From Bernardetia sp. OM2101 (lineage in GTDB: Bacteria > Bacteroidota > Bacteroidia > Cytophagales > Bernardetiaceae), in contig NZ_CP170094.1 of assembly GCF_042180575.1 (NCBI RefSeq), positions 1,784,604-1,848,603 of the forward strand: a DNA stretch of 64,000 nucleotides. The letters run 5' to 3'. The position numbers and the translations under genes were made by a program. This document shows positions 20,217 to 48,314 of this stretch, piece after piece. Numbering within the stretch: the stretch's first letter is position 1; each line of letters opens with the position of its first letter. Under the pieces are notes generated by a model. It saw only the letters and a program-made list of their open reading frames with translations, ran no database searches and was not told the origin of the DNA.

Positions 20217-22898
20217 ATGAAACCTAAAGAAATTATAGAATTAGAAAATCTATTATCTAAGAGATTAAATAAATCAATAGAGTTAGTACAAAAGACTTTA
20301 GATGAAATGAAAAACCATGCAGGTAGTTTTGCATACTCTCTAAACTCTTCAAATGAAGTGAATGGTCTCGGTTTTCTTTTTGATAAAGTGAAAGATATAA
20401 GTTTTGTTAAAGCATTTCCAAAGTTAGAAGTTTTAGATTTAAGCGATTGTGAACTACAAAACCTTCAAGATGAATTATTTGAATTGAAAGAACTTACTCA
20501 TTTGAGTATAAGTGCTAATCCTATTTCTCATATTCCTAAGGATATTTTAAAATTAGAAAAACTAGAATATTTCAATTGTGGATTTATAAATGGTAATTTT
20601 TCTCCTGCTATAGAATTTCCTAATTTTTTACAAAATCTAAAAAACTTGAAACACCTCTTAATTCATGGTAATGGATTAACAGAAATTCCTCAATGGATAT
20701 ATAAACTAAAAAATCTAGAGAGTCTAAATATTTATAATAATCATATTACAACTATCAGTGAAAAAATACTAAACCTTGATAAACTCAATGACATAAACAC
20801 TTTATATTTAGAAATAACTTCTCCTCCTCCTAATATTGTAAAACTAGGAGCAAAGGCTATAAAGGCTTATTTTAGAGGGTTAGAGTTAGGTTATATTGAA
20901 AATAATCATATCAAAATTATACTTGTTGGAAATGCTCATGTAGGCAAAACGATGTTATTCAATTATCTTACTAAAGCAAAAACCCCTATTGATTTTGCAG
21001 GTTCTACACATGGAATAAGAGTTGGAAATTTTAATATTGAAATAGAAAAAAGTGAAGCAGTAAACGTAAATCTATGGGACTTTGGAGGTCAAGAATATTA
21101 TCATGCTACACATCGTTTATTTTTTTCTGATAATGTTTTGTATTTACTTCTTTGGGAACAGGAAACTGATAAATATGGAAGCTATACATTCACTAGCGAA
21201 CAAGATACTATTATATCTCAACAAGGATTACAATATTTCAATCCTCCTATCTCTACAGAAATTACTACAGAAGGATTTCCTGTAGTTGATTGGGTAAGTA
21301 ATATAAGATTTTTTTCAAAGGATAGCCCAATATTATTAGTTCAAAACAAAACTGATATTCAAGAGCCTAAATATAGATTTTCAGAGTTAGAAGAAGATAT
21401 TCCTCATACTAGAGTTAGTCTAAAAAAATTAGAAGGTATTAACGAATTAGAAAAACTTATAAAAAGCTCAATACAAAATCTAAAACACTACAAATATAAA
21501 ATCCCAGTTTCTTGGCAGAAAGTAATTGAATTTATCAGTAGCTTAGGAAATAATTATTTTGGAATACGGTATGATTCATTAGAAAGGGAAGTTCAATCAT
21601 GGAATCAAGAAATGATAGATGATTTACCACAAATACTAAATTTTTATCACGAAAGAGGAGATATTCTTTGGATAAAAAATAACGAATTACTTAAAAAGTA
21701 TATATTTCCTCAACCTTGGAGAATAACAAATACGATTTATAGCATATTAAATAGAAAAGTAGCTGATAAAGATAAGGGCGAGTTTACTAGAGAATCTATA
21801 TATAGTTTGTATGGAAATCAAAAAGAACACGTAGACTTTTGTTTGGAACTCATGAAAGAATTTGAAATTATTTTCAGTATAAAAAATGAAGATAAAATAT
21901 TTATCGCTCCTCAATATCTAAATAAAAAAATACAAGACAAAAAACGTTTAGAAGACAATATTTACTATACAGAACCACAAAAAGTTTTTACTCTGCATTA
22001 TCCTACTTTTATGCCTAAAAGTATTTTTACTCGCTTTATCTGTAATTATGGAATGTATGCTGATAAAATGATGTATGGAAAAGAAGAGATTTATTTTGCT
22101 AAAAATAAAGTTGGAAGCTACGTAACTTGTGATTATGAAAAAAAAGTTATTACTGTAAATGTCCAAAATCAAAATGATACTCTAACTAAAGAAATTTTTG
22201 ATGAGTTATATCGTATAAGTGGTGGAAAAGATAACTTGCAACTTTATTCAGAAGCAAAAAATCGTTTTGTAAGTCTATCAGACATACGAGAATATGAAGA
22301 CACTTATAAAAATGACTTTTGGTTTATGTTTAAAAGTTCACAAGAAAATAAAATTATGAAAAAAGAAAAAAATAAAATAAATATTTTTGTTTCTTATTCA
22401 AGTAGAGATAGAGAATTAAGGGAACTTTTAGTAGAAGGAGTTCAAAAACATTTAACTCATCGCCAAAACTTTGAATATGAACAATGGACAGATGCAGAAA
22501 TTGATTTTGGTTCAGATTGGAAAGAAACGATTGAAAAAGCATTAAAAGAAAGCAACGTCGCTATTTTATTGGTTAGTGCTAATTTTGCAGCTTCTTCATT
22601 TATAAATGAAAATGAATTGACAGCATTTTTTGAAAGACAAAAAGCAGGAGGGTATTTAATTTTACCTGTGTTAGTTATGAAATATGATTTTTTACAATTC
22701 GAAAAGTTGTCAAAAATAAATTTCTTTAAGACCTATTATAGCGAATATGGATTTACAAAACCTATAGAAAGAAACAAATTACTTCCTTTTGATAAACTAG
22801 CAGAAAATGAAAATACAACTAATGGACAACTAAATTTATACTATGAAAAATTAGCTGATTTTATTCATACAGCCGTTTCTAATAAATTCAAATCCTAA
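20217..22898 (+). CDS. LRR - Roc (Ras-like GTPase) - COR - TIR multidomain protein (ROCO-TIR), candidate NAD-targeting defence effector
   Basis: 893 aa. LRR consensus around aa 60-215 (LEVLDLSDCELQNL…LTHLSISANPISHIP…). GTPase motifs: G1 GNAHVGKT, G3 DFGGQ, G4 NKTD (about aa 228-400). COR-length linker. C-terminal TIR domain (INIFVSYSSRDRE…AILLVSANFAASSFINENEL). Confidence 0.8.
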   Translation: MKPKEIIELENLLSKRLNKSIELVQKTLDEMKNHAGSFAYSLNSSNEVNGLGFLFDKVKDISFVKAFPKLEVLDLSDCELQNLQDELFELKELTHLSISANPISHIPKDILKLEKLEYFNCGFINGNFSPAIEFPNFLQNLKNLKHLLIHGNGLTEIPQWIYKLKNLESLNIYNNHITTISEKILNLDKLNDINTLYLEITSPPPNIVKLGAKAIKAYFRGLELGYIENNHIKIILVGNAHVGKTMLFNYLTKAKTPIDFAGSTHGIRVGNFNIEIEKSEAVNVNLWDFGGQEYYHATHRLFFSDNVLYLLLWEQETDKYGSYTFTSEQDTIISQQGLQYFNPPISTEITTEGFPVVDWVSNIRFFSKDSPILLVQNKTDIQEPKYRFSELEEDIPHTRVSLKKLEGINELEKLIKSSIQNLKHYKYKIPVSWQKVIEFISSLGNNYFGIRYDSLEREVQSWNQEMIDDLPQILNFYHERGDILWIKNNELLKKYIFPQPWRITNTIYSILNRKVADKDKGEFTRESIYSLYGNQKEHVDFCLELMKEFEIIFSIKNEDKIFIAPQYLNKKIQDKKRLEDNIYYTEPQKVFTLHYPTFMPKSIFTRFICNYGMYADKMMYGKEEIYFAKNKVGSYVTCDYEKKVITVNVQNQNDTLTKEIFDELYRISGGKDNLQLYSEAKNRFVSLSDIREYEDTYKNDFWFMFKSSQENKIMKKEKNKINIFVSYSSRDRELRELLVEGVQKHLTHRQNFEYEQWTDAEIDFGSDWKETIEKALKESNVAILLVSANFAASSFINENELTAFFERQKAGGYLILPVLVMKYDFLQFEKLSKINFFKTYYSEYGFTKPIERNKLLPFDKLAENENTTNGQLNLYYEKLADFIHTAVSNKFKS

Positions 22899-22940: not shown

Positions 22941-23909
22941 ATGAATAAAGATTTTGAAGAAGTCATACATTTAATTTCAGATGCTAAAAACCAAACCAAT
23001 TCTATTATAAATCGTGCTTTGGTAGAATTGTATTGGAAAGTTGGAAAATATGTTTCCCTAAAAACAGAAAATGTAGAAAATGCTAATGCTACAATAAAAG
23101 AGTTAGCTCAATATATAATGTATAGAGAACCTCATTTGAAAGGATTTAATGGACGTGGTTTGTGGCGAATGAAACAGTTTTATGAAGAATATTCTCAAAA
23201 TTCGACGTTGTCACCACTGGTGACAACGATAAGCTGGACAAATAATTTACTCATTTTATCCAAAACAAAAACGGTAGAAGAAAAGGAGTTTTACATCAAA
23301 AAATGTATAAAAGAAAGGTACAGCAAACGAGAATTAGAAAGACAAATTGATAGTGCTTATTATGAAAGAACAATGCTTAGTAATACGCAAAGTAGCATAA
23401 CAGCAGAAGAACTTTATCCACGCATAAAGGAAGTTTTTTTGGATAATTATGTAGTAGAATTTTTGAATTTGAAAGATGATTTTTCTGAATTTGACTTACA
23501 AAAATCTATTCTCAAACATCTCAAAAAATTTGTTTTAGAGTTTGGAAAAGATTTTTTATTGATAGATGAAGAGTACAAAGTACAGGTAGGAAATCAAGAT
23601 TTTTATATTGACTTATTATTTTTTCATAGAGAATTACGTTGCTTGGTGGCTCTTGAACTCAAAATTACAGACTTCAAACCTGAATATTTAGGTAAAATGA
23701 ATTTCTATTTAGAAGCCTTAGACAGAAATGTAAAAAAGGAACACGAAAATCCAAGTGTAGGAATTATCCTTTGTAAAACTAAAGATAGTGAAGTAGTAGA
23801 ATATGCACTTAGTAGAAACTTGTCTCCTACTTTAGTTTCTGAATACGAAACCAAATTATTAGATAAAAAAATACTTCAACAGAAATTACATGAACTATTT
23901 GAAAATTAA
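22941..23909 (+). CDS. DUF1016/YhcG-family PD-(D/E)XK nuclease domain protein
   Basis: 322 aa. N-terminus …NRALVELYWKVGKYVS… and C-terminal restriction-endonuclease-like core …VALELKITDFKPEYLGKMNFYLEALD… are characteristic of the YhcG family. Confidence 0.8.
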   Translation: MNKDFEEVIHLISDAKNQTNSIINRALVELYWKVGKYVSLKTENVENANATIKELAQYIMYREPHLKGFNGRGLWRMKQFYEEYSQNSTLSPLVTTISWTNNLLILSKTKTVEEKEFYIKKCIKERYSKRELERQIDSAYYERTMLSNTQSSITAEELYPRIKEVFLDNYVVEFLNLKDDFSEFDLQKSILKHLKKFVLEFGKDFLLIDEEYKVQVGNQDFYIDLLFFHRELRCLVALELKITDFKPEYLGKMNFYLEALDRNVKKEHENPSVGIILCKTKDSEVVEYALSRNLSPTLVSEYETKLLDKKILQQKLHELFEN

Positions 23910-45935: not shown

Positions 45936-46643
45936 TTAAGACAACAAAAGTTTCTTACCATATTTTTTATCTAGTTCTGTAAAAGCAATTTGCCTTTTAG
46001 ACGAAGATTTAGAAACTCTTACTTTTGCAGCCATTTTTTCATATTCTTTAATAAGCGTGCGTTCTTCTTGTGGCTCAAAGAAATAAATATAACCTGCCGA
46101 CATTCCTTTTAGTGTATCTTCTTCATCGTTCAAATCAATAAAATCTCCCAAAAAAGGTACAAAACGAAAAAACATCAAAAAATTCATATTGATAGGATTT
46201 TTATCTATTGTATCAGCAAGTGTTTTGTCTATAATCGCTATTTCTTGTCCTTCATTTACTCCCAAAACATCATCAAAATAAATAATTCCTTCTTCTACAT
46301 CTACATCAATGATTCTAAAAAGAGAAGTATAAGAGTTTTCAAAAGAGGGAACAAATTTATTTAGCAAAGCAATTTCTTCAGCTTCTTTTTGTTCTTCTAA
46401 AAAAATCTGATATGCTTTATACTTATTTACTCGTTGTTCTAAAAGTACATAATCTGTAAAACAGTTGCGATGAGCATTGGTCTCAAAATTTATTTTTGTA
46501 GTATTTTCTTTATTGTTGATACTTCCAAAAGCAGGAATAGCTTCTTGCACAAAATATCCATTATAAGCATCAAAAACAGCTTGAAGACTTTTTCTCATGT
46601 CATCTGCAAACGTTTTATAATAATTGAGTGTGTAATTTTCCAT
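45936..46643 (-). CDS. hypothetical protein
   Basis: 235-aa ORF with good coding appearance. No motif recognised. Confidence 0.4.
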   Translation of the reverse strand: MENYTLNYYKTFADDMRKSLQAVFDAYNGYFVQEAIPAFGSINNKENTTKINFETNAHRNCFTDYVLLEQRVNKYKAYQIFLEEQKEAEEIALLNKFVPSFENSYTSLFRIIDVDVEEGIIYFDDVLGVNEGQEIAIIDKTLADTIDKNPINMNFLMFFRFVPFLGDFIDLNDEEDTLKGMSAGYIYFFEPQEERTLIKEYEKMAAKVRVSKSSSKRQIAFTELDKKYGKKLLLS

Positions 46644-46767
46644 AATTTCTATATAATTTTTACTTCTGTAAACGTGTAATTCAGTTTTATTAGATTAAAA
46701 TAATAAGCCTACAAAAGTACAAAAAATAATAGCGATACAGATTTGATAGGATTTATAAAAACTCAAA

Positions 46768-47071
46768 AAAAGTAAATTATTTTTTAGTTCGTAAATCCCT
46801 TACGTTCTGCACTCTTAATTTTGTAGTATCCTTAAAAGAAAAGGTAGCTGATACTTTCCAAAATGTCAGAAAAAAAATCAAATTAATTTTTAGTTCGTAA
46901 ATCCCTTACGTTCTACTCTCTTAATTTTGTAATATCCTTAAAAGAAGAAGGAATATAACAGATATTTTTAGTGTCAAGAAGAATAGAAAAATTTAAAAAA
47001 AAAGTAAATTATTTTTTTACTACGTAAATCCCTTACGTTCTGCACTCTTAATTTTGTAGTATCCTTAAAAG
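46768..47071. repeat. three tandem ~115-bp units upstream of recA, each with a conserved ~62-75 bp core and a ~45-55 bp variable part
   Basis: Core ttcgtaaatcccttacgttctgcactcttaattttgtagtatccttaaaag at about 46787-46837, 46893-46945 and 47016-47071. Each core has a CGTAA-N5-TTACG inverted repeat and a TAATTTTG (-7-like) box. Copies 1 and 3 also share aaaaaagtaaattattttt. Confidence 0.85.
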
Positions 47072-47159
47072 GAAAAAGTGTAAAAAACAGTTTTAGTAAC
47101 TGCAAAAAAACACAAATTAGTTTAGTAAATCATTTATCACTCTTATATATATTTCAATT

Positions 47160-48314
47160 ATGGCAAAAGGAGCCGACGACCAAAAAAAGAAACTAGAAGC
47201 ACTAAAAGTAACTTTAGCAAAGCTTGACAAAACGTATGGAAAAGGTACAGTTATGAAACTGACCGATGATAATGTAGTAGATATTCCAAGCATCTCAACA
47301 GGTTCTTTAGGGCTTGATATTGCTCTAGGAATTGGAGGATTACCTCGTGGTAGAGTAGTAGAAATTTATGGTCCAGAATCTTCTGGTAAAACTACACTTA
47401 CTCTTCATGCTATTGCAGAAGCCCAAAAACAAGGTGGTTTGGCTGCTTTTATTGATGCAGAACACGCATTTGATAGAGTGTATGCTCAAAATTTAGGTGT
47501 AGATTTGGATAATCTTCTTATCTCTCAACCTGATAATGGTGAGCAAGCCTTAGAAATTGCCGAACAGCTTATTCGTTCAACAGCGATTGATATTGTAGTA
47601 ATTGACTCTGTCGCTGCTCTTGTACCAAAGGCAGAATTAGAAGGCGACATGGGAGATTCTAAAATGGGTCTGCAAGCACGACTTATGTCTCAAGCTCTTC
47701 GTAAACTGACAGGTGTAATTAGCAAAACACAATGTACTTGTATTTTTATTAACCAACTTCGTGATAAGATTGGTGTCATGTTCGGTAGCCCTGAAACAAC
47801 AACTGGTGGTAATGCACTCAAGTTTTACTCTTCTGTTCGTTTGGATATTCGCCGTATTGGAGCAATCAAAGATGGCGACAAAATCACAGGTAACCGTACT
47901 CGTGTGAGTGTTAAGAAAAATAAATTAGCTCCTCCTTTCAAACAAGTTGAGTTTGATATTATGTATGGACGAGGAATTTCTAAAGCTGGCGAAATCTTGG
48001 ATTTAGCTGTTGATTTGGATATTGTAAAAAAATCGGGTTCTTGGTACTCTTATGGAGATAACAAACTCGGACAAGGTCGTGATTCTGTAAAAGCTCTTAT
48101 CGAAGAAGATGAAGTGCTAATGACAGACCTTGAAGGACAACTTCGTGAACTTGATAAAGCTGCTATTGCAGCCGAAAAAGACGGAAAATCTTCTAAATCT
48201 AAAGGTAAAAAAGCAGAAAAAGCAATAACTGCAACTGCTGATGCCGAAAGTGAAGACGAAGACAACGACGAAGATTTTGTCTTTGAAGACGAAGAATTAG
48301 AAGATGAAAAATAA
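47160..48314 (+). CDS. recA: recombinase RecA
   Basis: 384 aa. …[16 protein letters not shown]… Walker A, L1/L2 loops and an acidic C-terminal tail. Confidence 0.95.

Follow-up and report, generated by a model that had tools for sequence, protein, structure and literature searches.

Tandem putative promoter-operator modules upstream of recA in Bernardetia and a candidate DNA-damage control box in Bacteroidota

Results

The recA upstream region of Bernardetia sp. OM2101

The window analysed here is a stretch of 64,000 nucleotides (nt) from the marine bacterium Bernardetia sp. OM2101 (Cytophagales, Bernardetiaceae; RefSeq: GCF_042180575.1; contig NZ_CP170094.1, positions 1,784,604 to 1,848,603 of the forward strand), and all positions are counted from its first letter. 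The intergenic region 46644-47159 separates recA (47160-48314) from a divergent gene for a protein of 235 amino acids (aa) (45936-46643, minus strand), whose family, as seen in a relative, is DUF7986. It holds an array of 390 base pairs (bp), in which three tandem units each combine an inverted repeat, CGTAA-ATCCC-TTACG (the dyad), with a box TAATTTTG resembling the -7 element of Bacteroidetes promoters. The annotated features are:

46712..46719, minus strand: TACTTTTG, box of the -7 type belonging to the divergent gene (235 aa); bounds the recA control region on the left, outside the array
46776..46839, plus strand: core of unit 1 (distal module), sharing 88-91% identity with the corresponding core in two other Bernardetia species, with 42-48% in the adjacent spacer
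46790..46804: dyad 1, CGTAA-ATCCC-TTACG, predicted regulator site, centre at about -33 relative to the -7 box
46816..46823, plus strand: -7 box 1, TAATTTTG, of the Bacteroidetes TAnnTTTG type
46882..46945, plus strand: core of unit 2 (middle module), 88-92% identical between species
46896..46910: dyad 2, CGTAA-ATCCC-TTACG
46922..46929, plus strand: -7 box 2, TAATTTTG
47009..47072, plus strand: core of unit 3 (proximal module), counterpart of the single module of other genera
47023..47037: dyad 3, CGTAA-ATCCC-TTACG, with 6-bp arms ACGTAA...TTACGT
47049..47056, plus strand: -7 box 3, TAATTTTG
47115..47159, plus strand: leader adjoining the start codon of recA, AATTAGTTTAGTAAATCATTTATCACTCTTATATATATTTCAATT, with hardly any change across the genus
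47160..48314, plus strand: recA, 384 aa, Pfam RecA E = 4.8e-138, 100% identical to the RecA of Bernardetia sp. OM2101

A direct-repeat search returned a 108-nt unit three times (46754-46861, 46860-46967 and 46987-47094). All units are oriented toward recA, with start-to-start distances of 106 and 127 nt; the three tandem units of the initial annotation are thus present, while the length of ~115 bp given there is only the mean of these periods. Conserved cores of ~64 nt alternate with spacers of 42 and 63 nt, instead of the 45-55 bp first reported, and 88 nt separate the end of the last core from the ATG of recA (47160), as annotated. The 19-mer CGTAAATCCCTTACGTTCT has three exact matches in the 64-kilobase (kb) window (46790, 46896 and 47023, all on the plus strand), where shuffled sequences lead one to expect 0.04, and the 26-mer TCTTAATTTTGTAGTATCCTTAAAAG around the TAATTTTG box has three matches with at most one mismatch (expected 0.00). 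Dyad and box were both found in all three copies, in agreement with the earlier description. An array of clustered regularly interspaced short palindromic repeats (CRISPR) was rejected, as it had been before: with three units of 106-127 nt and a 64-nt core, repeat length and copy number are wrong, and the spacers are irregular.

To the left of the three units, the leftmost 140 nt of the intergenic region form the side of the divergent gene with its own TACTTTTG box. To their right, the 47-nt stretch from unit 3 to the ATG shows 96% identity in a comparison of loci L001 and L005, and the window has this stretch too. The last 45 nt before recA (ending in TTAGTAAATCATTTATCACTCTTATATATATTTCAATT-ATG; at 2955-3000 in L001, L003 and L005) are near-invariant in Bernardetia, with insertions and deletions (indels) just upstream, and the window has a 40-nt insert with a small hairpin; this leader may be a translation-initiation or leader element. 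The encoded RecA, at 384 aa, exceeds the 340-360 aa of other Cytophagales RecA proteins among the homology matches, and its C-terminal ~50 residues (48150-48311) are lysine-rich and then run into a strongly acidic tail.

Anatomy of the composite site

Each unit proceeds from an A/T-rich tract to the dyad, then to TTCT and, after exactly 7 nt, to the -7 box TAATTTTG and a conserved putative transcript start. Promoters of the Bacteroidetes primary sigma factor carry a -33 TTTG and a -7 TAnnTTTG element, with transcription beginning some 7 nt downstream of the -7 box. TAnnTTTG is present as TAATTTTG in all three units, and we infer from it that the -7 boxes are active promoters. A TTG or TTTG about 19 nt upstream of the -7 element is not present; the dyad spacer, AAT/ATC, occupies that position. 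If TAnnTTTG is numbered -14 to -7, the dyad extends from about -40 to -26, is centred at -33 and stands in place of the usual -33 element.

An alignment of twelve sequences was gapless across the whole composite of dyad and box. It showed that the inner four positions of each dyad arm (CGTA/TACG) are invariant, that the fifth is broken in three of the twelve sequences, and that changes at the sixth preserve the symmetry (A..T in seven sequences, C..G in four). Symmetry is partial at the outer AGAA/TTCT positions, and in Algivirga and locus L018 the palindrome is perfect over 9-N5-9, in the form AGAACGTAA-N5-TTACGTTCT, which gives a site length of 17-23 bp. Invariant inner bases together with symmetric outer change fit a dimeric DNA-binding protein and not an RNA stem; a protein presumably binds at the dyad.

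The same data bear on the alternative of the initial annotation, a tandem set of small-RNA genes, and on the related idea that the dyad is an RNA hairpin in the recA leader. Both are very remote in our judgement. Each unit does have a promoter-like box, and small hairpins followed by A-runs come after the boxes, with a strong fold in locus L034 (z = -4.2). The hairpins of the window, however, fold no better than shuffled sequences (z 0.17 to -0.67), a scan for terminator-like sites returned none, and no credible Rfam match was obtained in the region at E up to 10, the whole window yielding only three tRNAs elsewhere at the gathering threshold. The sequence between the units is poorly conserved, and the conserved block, being upstream of the -7 box, would not be transcribed from its own promoter. 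A hairpin is further opposed by the invariance of the inner four dyad positions and by the fifth-position changes, which break pairing. The small-RNA proposal was abandoned on these grounds; a sigma-70 promoter scan was uninformative for Bacteroidota, and the promoters of the window itself were too few to yield a useful -33 TTG consensus.

The array in relatives of Bernardetia

Loci of relatives were obtained through their RecA proteins and the others through a pattern scan of sequenced genomes, among them metagenome-assembled genomes (MAGs). Bernardetia-like genomes revealed 2-4 units upstream of recA:

Window (OM2101): 3 units
L001 and L002 (two assemblies sharing the RecA of strain Wsw4-3y2): 3 units
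Strain ABR2-2B: 3 units
MAG L027: 3 units
B. litoralis DSM 6794: 2 units
MAG L044: 2 units
MAG L034 (short contig): at least 2 units
MAG L030: 4 units

Across eight genomes compared, TTACGTTCT-N7-TAnnTTTG (pattern TTACGTTCT-N7-TANNTTTG) is kept without change in 22 of 22 units. Core identity between species amounts to 78-95% in the three genomes with three units, whereas the spacers of the window are 32-51% identical to those of the two other three-unit genomes; we take this difference as a sign of selection on each unit. A nearest-neighbour comparison showed positional orthology, the middle copies of two species being 95% alike and the proximal copies grouping together. It also revealed amplification within a lineage: the three distal copies of L030 are 86-98% alike, all with a damaged left arm, CATAA. 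The array would thus be old in the genus and still dynamic, and it is older than the divergence of species that share 92-98% RecA identity with the window. The unit periods (106-154 nt) share no common helical phase.

The upstream neighbour of the array varies by strain (HflX GTPase, DUF7986, or a 186-aa protein plus an M28 peptidase); as the units are kept nevertheless, they appear to travel with recA. In ABR2-2B the downstream neighbour of recA differs too, and with flanking genes that change in this way the recA locus can be regarded as a rearrangement breakpoint in Bernardetia. In B. litoralis a transposase of the insertion-sequence type (DDE_Tnp_1) is located 2.8 kb upstream.

Variation of copy number between species qualifies the reading of the units as promoter modules, and it is what a neutral or recombination-driven minisatellite would produce, one that includes the true recA promoter and in which only the proximal copy functions. 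L030, in which a copy whose left arm is damaged was recently triplicated, points the same way, as not every copy need be regulated, and so do the spacer indels found even between two assemblies with identical RecA. Yet the distal cores are as conserved between species as the proximal ones (88-95% versus 78-92%), the right half-site, spacing and TAnnTTTG are retained in all 22 units, and the array is older than the species split mentioned above; we consider a minisatellite of this kind improbable. Multi-copy arrays were seen in Bernardetia only, with a single copy in Hugenholtzia, a member of the same family, and we regard the tandem amplification of entire modules as particular to Bernardetia.

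The composite outside Bernardetia

Beyond the genus the composite takes the form (A/C)CGTAA-N5-TTACG(T/G)-(T/C)CT-N7-(T)AnnTTTG. A scan of 185,579 species genomes (596 gigabases) with the pattern CGTANATCNNTTACGTTCT, which has 16 fixed bases, returned 102 loci. As ~280 matches are expected by chance and many are intragenic, this total alone is uninformative; 36 matches are intergenic in Bacteroidota, most of them followed by TTTG. At 12 loci outside Bernardetia the site is directly followed by a gene for a full-length RecA, 69-76% identical to that of the window, where ~0.01 matches upstream of recA would be expected by chance (~100 matches, 350-nt target per genome). These recA-associated loci are labelled Crocinitomicaceae, Flavobacteriales, Cytophagales and Chryseobacterium gleum, some MAG labels being doubtful; two are labelled outside the phylum, apparently through mis-binning. 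Four complete Bernardetia genomes (CP003345, CP147012, CP147017, CP147020) have exact pattern matches, yet the scan did not return them; the scanned collection must either lack or mask these genomes, so that absence from it is not evidence of absence. Since 16 fixed bases understate the natural variation of the site, the list of associated genes is a lower bound.

Independently of the pattern, the recA upstream regions of seven other Cytophagales were fetched via their RecA proteins. Five of them contain exactly one composite with the same spacing:

Hugenholtzia roseola: CCGTACATAGATTACGGTCT-N7-TAACTTTG upstream of recA
Sediminitomix flava: CCGTAATTCATTTACGGTCT-N7-TAATTTTG upstream of recA
Algivirga pacifica: AGAACGTAATTCGTTTACGTTCT-N7-TACTTTTG upstream of recA
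Rapidithrix thailandica: CCGTAAATAGCTTACGGCCT-N7-TACTTTTG upstream of recA
Limibacter armeniacum: CCGTACTTCATTTACGGTCT-N7-TACCTTTG upstream of recA

In total, the composite precedes recA in at least 17 loci outside Bernardetia, and the comparison of related recA upstream regions suggested by the initial annotation has thus located it in other families and orders of Bacteroidota. The geometry is constant: the end of the site lies 11-12 nt from TTTG in 29 of the 36 promoter-type matches and in all five sites found without the pattern, while the distance from the module to the start codon ranges from ~20 to ~250 nt. The -7 boxes of Flavobacteriales frequently lack the T of TA.

The composite is also found upstream of genes other than recA. 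Five loci from Crocinitomicaceae and Flavobacteriales have it before a cassette in which the gene for a Y-family polymerase (Pfam IMS, E = 1.9e-44) precedes one for a DnaE2-like polymerase III alpha subunit, and in Flexithrix dorotheae a PARP/WGR gene lies behind it. A recA gene and an error-prone polymerase cassette form the classical core of an SOS-type regulon. The presence of the composite before recA, the Y-family/DnaE2 cassette and the PARP/WGR gene therefore suggests that it marks a DNA-damage (SOS-like) regulon. The prediction that the dyad would recur at further repair genes was borne out for these genes in other Bacteroidota, but not for uvrC in the window. A relaxed search of the window (dyad with at most two mismatches plus TTTG at the right spacing) found the three known sites and one intragenic match.

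Further genes behind the box encode a DnaA-ATPase-like protein, a DUF6471 protein and a pPIWI_RE_Z protein. Two families of small proteins without a Pfam match also follow it in several Flavobacteriales MAGs and are candidates for new damage-inducible genes. One comprises 77-80 aa (L040, L042, L054, L092), with DUF6272-type and HD-domain genes following in three of four loci (Pfam checked in L054 only); the other comprises 101-106 aa (L023, L051, L061, L068, L102) and is divergent from an aminopeptidase P gene in four of five loci. In L011, L046, L076 and L083 the box lies between the Y-family/DnaE2 cassette and a divergent GyrB/ParE-type gene, with a DUF433 gene between in two of them; topoisomerase IV genes beside CTAA-N5-TTAG sites were noted in a 2021 survey (PMC8565304). 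An origin of the site as a phage-derived operator was considered and rejected: viral contigs contained no composite match, and their 120 dyad matches were chance-like, three of them near TTTG and none in a promoter context.

The published SOS box and candidate regulators

Bacteroidetes lack canonical LexA, and in them HTH-S24 repressors, of a helix-turn-helix (HTH) type, bind GGA-N5-TCC or CTAA-N5-TTAG (Sanchez-Osuna et al., Nucleic Acids Res 2021; PMC8565304), and some of their paralogues have altered dyads such as TTAC-AAATT-GTAA (PMC8565304). The dyad described here shares with the published box the 4-N5-4 plan and the TAA/TTA core, (C)GTAA-N5-TTAC(G) being present in every unit and taxon checked. 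With a matrix built from the 126 CTAA-N5-TTAG sites of that paper, the dyads score -16.1 to -21.0 bits against a site median of +16.1, and the best CTAA-N5-TTAG-like (M2) score in the recA upstream region is 6.5. CGTAA-N5-TTACG is absent from the sites and alternative dyads in tables S8 and S10 of the paper (PMC8565304). CTAA-N5-TTAG itself has two matches in the window, no more than chance would give; one is intragenic, the other near secG and tRNAs, and neither is near recA or uvrC.

As a positive control, the upstream regions of 80 metagenomic LexA-like (HTH-S24) loci were searched. This revealed 43 CTAA-N5-TTAG sites and reproduced the published motif; at many of these genes the site lies ~17 nt before the start codon, unlike the -33 position of the dyad. 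CGTAA-N5-TTACG was found upstream of none of the same 80 genes.

The regulators in the window are of the AraC type (Pfam) and, by eye, of the Fur and Lrp types. Among the window open reading frames (ORFs) scanned there was no S24, XRE or WYL protein, and WYL proteins were not sought in the relevant genomes; an S24-type gene was present in 0 of the 102 pattern loci. In the published tree (PMC8565304), Fluviicola taffensis, Owenweeksia hongkongensis and Chryseobacterium gleum have an HTH-S24 regulator and no known motif, and B. litoralis has two HTH-S24 regulators; the same survey lists Bernardetia as lacking UmuD and DinB/UmuC homologues. The families with the new box (Crocinitomicaceae, Cryomorphaceae and a Chryseobacterium-labelled MAG) include representatives with a regulator but no known motif, which makes a divergent HTH-S24 paralogue the most economical candidate for the protein that would bind the dyad. 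A full-text literature search for the dyad and for other damage regulators of Bacteroidota, whose coverage did not extend to all journals, found nothing.

It could accordingly be asked whether the dyad is itself a divergent form of the known SOS box, bound by one of the two HTH-S24 paralogues of Bernardetia. Such an identity, which touches the regulator only and is compatible with promoter-operator modules, is a real possibility that we nevertheless hold to be doubtful. The two sites have the architecture xTAA-N5-TTAx and a 10-bp half-site spacing in common, changed dyads of paralogues are documented, some of the taxa named above have a regulator without a known motif, and B. litoralis has two such regulators. 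The gap on the 126-site matrix argues against it, as do the absence of the dyad from the published tables and from the 80 LexA-like upstream regions, its length of 17-23 bp versus 13 bp, and its position at -33 rather than near the start site.

Other features of the window and of related genomes

In the near-complete Bernardetia-like MAG that includes L030, one composite is an orphan (L089:4398-4416, contig CAVRCG010000004.1). It lies in a 1-kb gap without an ORF of at least 90 aa and reads CGTAAATCGTTTACGTTCT, then TATCTTTA in place of a clean TTTG box. It adjoins type I CRISPR-associated genes (Cas6-like, a 190-aa protein and a split Cas3-like gene, named by eye), from which it faces away toward the 3' end of a gene that by eye is seryl-tRNA synthetase-like. 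A 7-bp hairpin follows it, then ~650 nt without an ORF; the site may be a small RNA or a decayed promoter. Unrelated to recA, a near-identical stretch of ~100 nt (containing ccaccctggcaccggaccattttggCGTATATCGGTTACGTTCTattctttattggttttgtatatac) was found at the pattern matches of L016, L059, L075 and L091 (Bacteroidota/Rikenellaceae MAGs) and is possibly a structured RNA or the end of a mobile element.

Elsewhere in the window, 20217-22895 (plus strand) encodes an 893-aa protein with leucine-rich repeats, a Roc GTPase, COR and a C-terminal TIR domain, that is, a bacterial ROCO-TIR protein. Directly after it, 22941-23906 (plus strand) encodes a YhcG-type PDDEXK nuclease (DUF1016). The pair is a candidate anti-phage defence locus.

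Discussion

Tandem promoter-operator modules as the favoured reading

The array upstream of recA is probably the result of tandem amplification of the recA promoter-operator module, to which a dimeric regulator, in our view more likely a repressor, would bind, and the dyad appears to be an undescribed DNA-damage control box of Bacteroidota. The triplicated promoter/operator with an SOS-like box that the initial annotation had proposed is supported by cores that are kept while spacers diverged, and by the composite at recA and polymerase genes elsewhere. The sign of the regulation, presumably negative, and the link with DNA damage, which the associated genes suggest, are both read from sequence.

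Each unit would be a complete promoter-operator module pointing at recA, and the dyad in it the predicted binding site of a dimeric helix-turn-helix regulator. A repressor would occlude RNA polymerase at each of the three promoters, and when bound at the proximal operator it would also stop read-through from the distal ones. Once inactivated following DNA damage, it would release all three promoters simultaneously. With a repressor or an activator alike, three modules would multiply the induced output.

Several observations weigh against this picture. The 80 LexA-like genes lack the dyad upstream, and no regulator gene is found among the box-bearing genes. SOS repressors are usually autoregulated. 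A tblastn search with the C-terminal domains from PMC8565304 found no LexA-like gene in the window or in the pattern loci. The two remaining Cytophagales of the seven, Rhodoflexus caldus and Flammeovirgaceae bacterium 311, have no composite upstream of recA; uvrC, in the same window, has no box; and in the near-complete Bernardetia-like MAG the strict pattern matched recA plus the one orphan site only. The left dyad arm is mutated in four of 22 units (CATAA in three, TGTAA in one), and distal copies with such an arm may escape regulation. Fixed spacing and a missing -33 element, finally, are more typical of activator-dependent promoters.

This last point leads to an alternative in which the modules are the same but the dyad binds a damage-switched activator that substitutes for the missing -33 contact, making three activator-dependent promoters. 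Across unrelated genes and taxa the dyad keeps a fixed distance and orientation relative to the -7 box, no TTG stands at the expected -33 position, and the frequent loss of the T of TA leaves the Flavobacteriales boxes weaker. The position is unlike that of HTH-S24 repressor sites at their own genes, ~17 nt before the start codon. None of the box-bearing genes encodes a regulator, and pafBC is likewise not damage-induced; PafBC-like proteins are common in Bacteroidetes according to a review (PMC7617703). As in the RecA-NDp promoters of the PafBC system, the site lies at a fixed spacing from the downstream element, and no upstream core element is present. On the other hand, the units of Bernardetia and other Cytophagales, with a perfect TAnnTTTG and an A/T tract, should need no activator, and no second, constitutive recA promoter is evident in species whose module is 20-70 nt away from the start codon. 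TTCT, moreover, is the outer part of the longer palindrome AGAACGTAA-N5-TTACGTTCT, perfect in Algivirga and L018, which partly removes the argument from orientation. An activator is thus less probable in our view. SOS precedent, the motif-less HTH-S24 proteins in these taxa, and the Cytophagales units, which with canonical -7 boxes and A/T tracts should be active alone, all favour a repressor, which we rank first at slightly better than even, above the activator as a minority option, with the rest left to other readings.

More speculatively, these observations could describe a third DNA-damage regulon of Bacteroidota, comprising recA, the Y-family/DnaE2 cassette, PARP/WGR and the small proteins. 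Its regulator would not be among the published HTH-S24 repressors and would act from -33, possibly as an activator replacing the sigma contact, and Bernardetia would have kept the box almost only for recA, with the module amplified 2-4 times. We put this forward tentatively and think it rather unlikely as a whole.

The dyad bears on the control of recA and of mutagenic polymerases across much of Bacteroidota. For Crocinitomicaceae, Cryomorphaceae, Weeksellaceae and some Cytophagales, the 2021 study reported a regulator but no recognisable box, or made no assignment (PMC8565304), and the dyad is found upstream of recA in clades left without a box there. It offers a precise probe of 17-23 bp for the regulator and a defined set of candidate genes for damage induction. 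The Bernardetia array, in which a full promoter plus operator is present 2-4 times in series and, as we read it, is kept under selection, may serve as a natural experiment on the tuning of an inducible repair gene by the number of its promoters.

Comparison with known systems

The closest known sites are the HTH-S24 SOS boxes of the same phylum (PMC8565304), which are likewise palindromes with a 5-bp spacer and a TAA/TTA core, lie upstream of recA and error-prone polymerase genes, and commonly occur several to a promoter. The dyad differs from them in falling at least 30 bits short on the published matrix, in being longer (up to 9-N5-9) and in its fixed -33 position, theirs being near the start site. 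In Bernardetia, moreover, whole promoters are repeated and not operators alone.

Canonical LexA promoters with multiple SOS boxes are those of E. coli lexA, recN and the colicin genes. They resemble the array in having several operators before a damage-inducible gene, and recA is a core member of that regulon. There, however, several operators serve one promoter, whereas here each unit of 106-154 nt has its own operator, -7 box and putative start; furthermore, no canonical LexA is known in Bacteroidetes (PMC8565304).

The WYL-domain activators PafBC of mycobacteria (RecA-NDp promoters, 'sigma adaptation') and DriD of Caulobacter (PMC7617703) provide a parallel in a damage regulon that includes recA, in a regulator site that replaces the upstream promoter element at fixed spacing, and in a regulator gene outside its own regulon. 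Their motif is unrelated, no WYL regulator is linked to the composite here, and the Bernardetia -7 boxes look self-sufficient.

The motif of the DdrO/IrrE system of Deinococcus has similar hexamers in opposite order. Like the dyad, it is a palindromic site before recA and repair genes and acts independently of LexA, there as the target of an XRE-type repressor (PMC8072749); it belongs to a different phylum, and its sites overlap transcription starts.

Finally, the tandem P1-P2 promoters of rrn operons are comparable in that complete promoters in series feed one gene and raise or diversify its output. Those promoters differ from each other in sequence and regulation, whereas the Bernardetia modules are near-identical copies, operator included, whose number varies.

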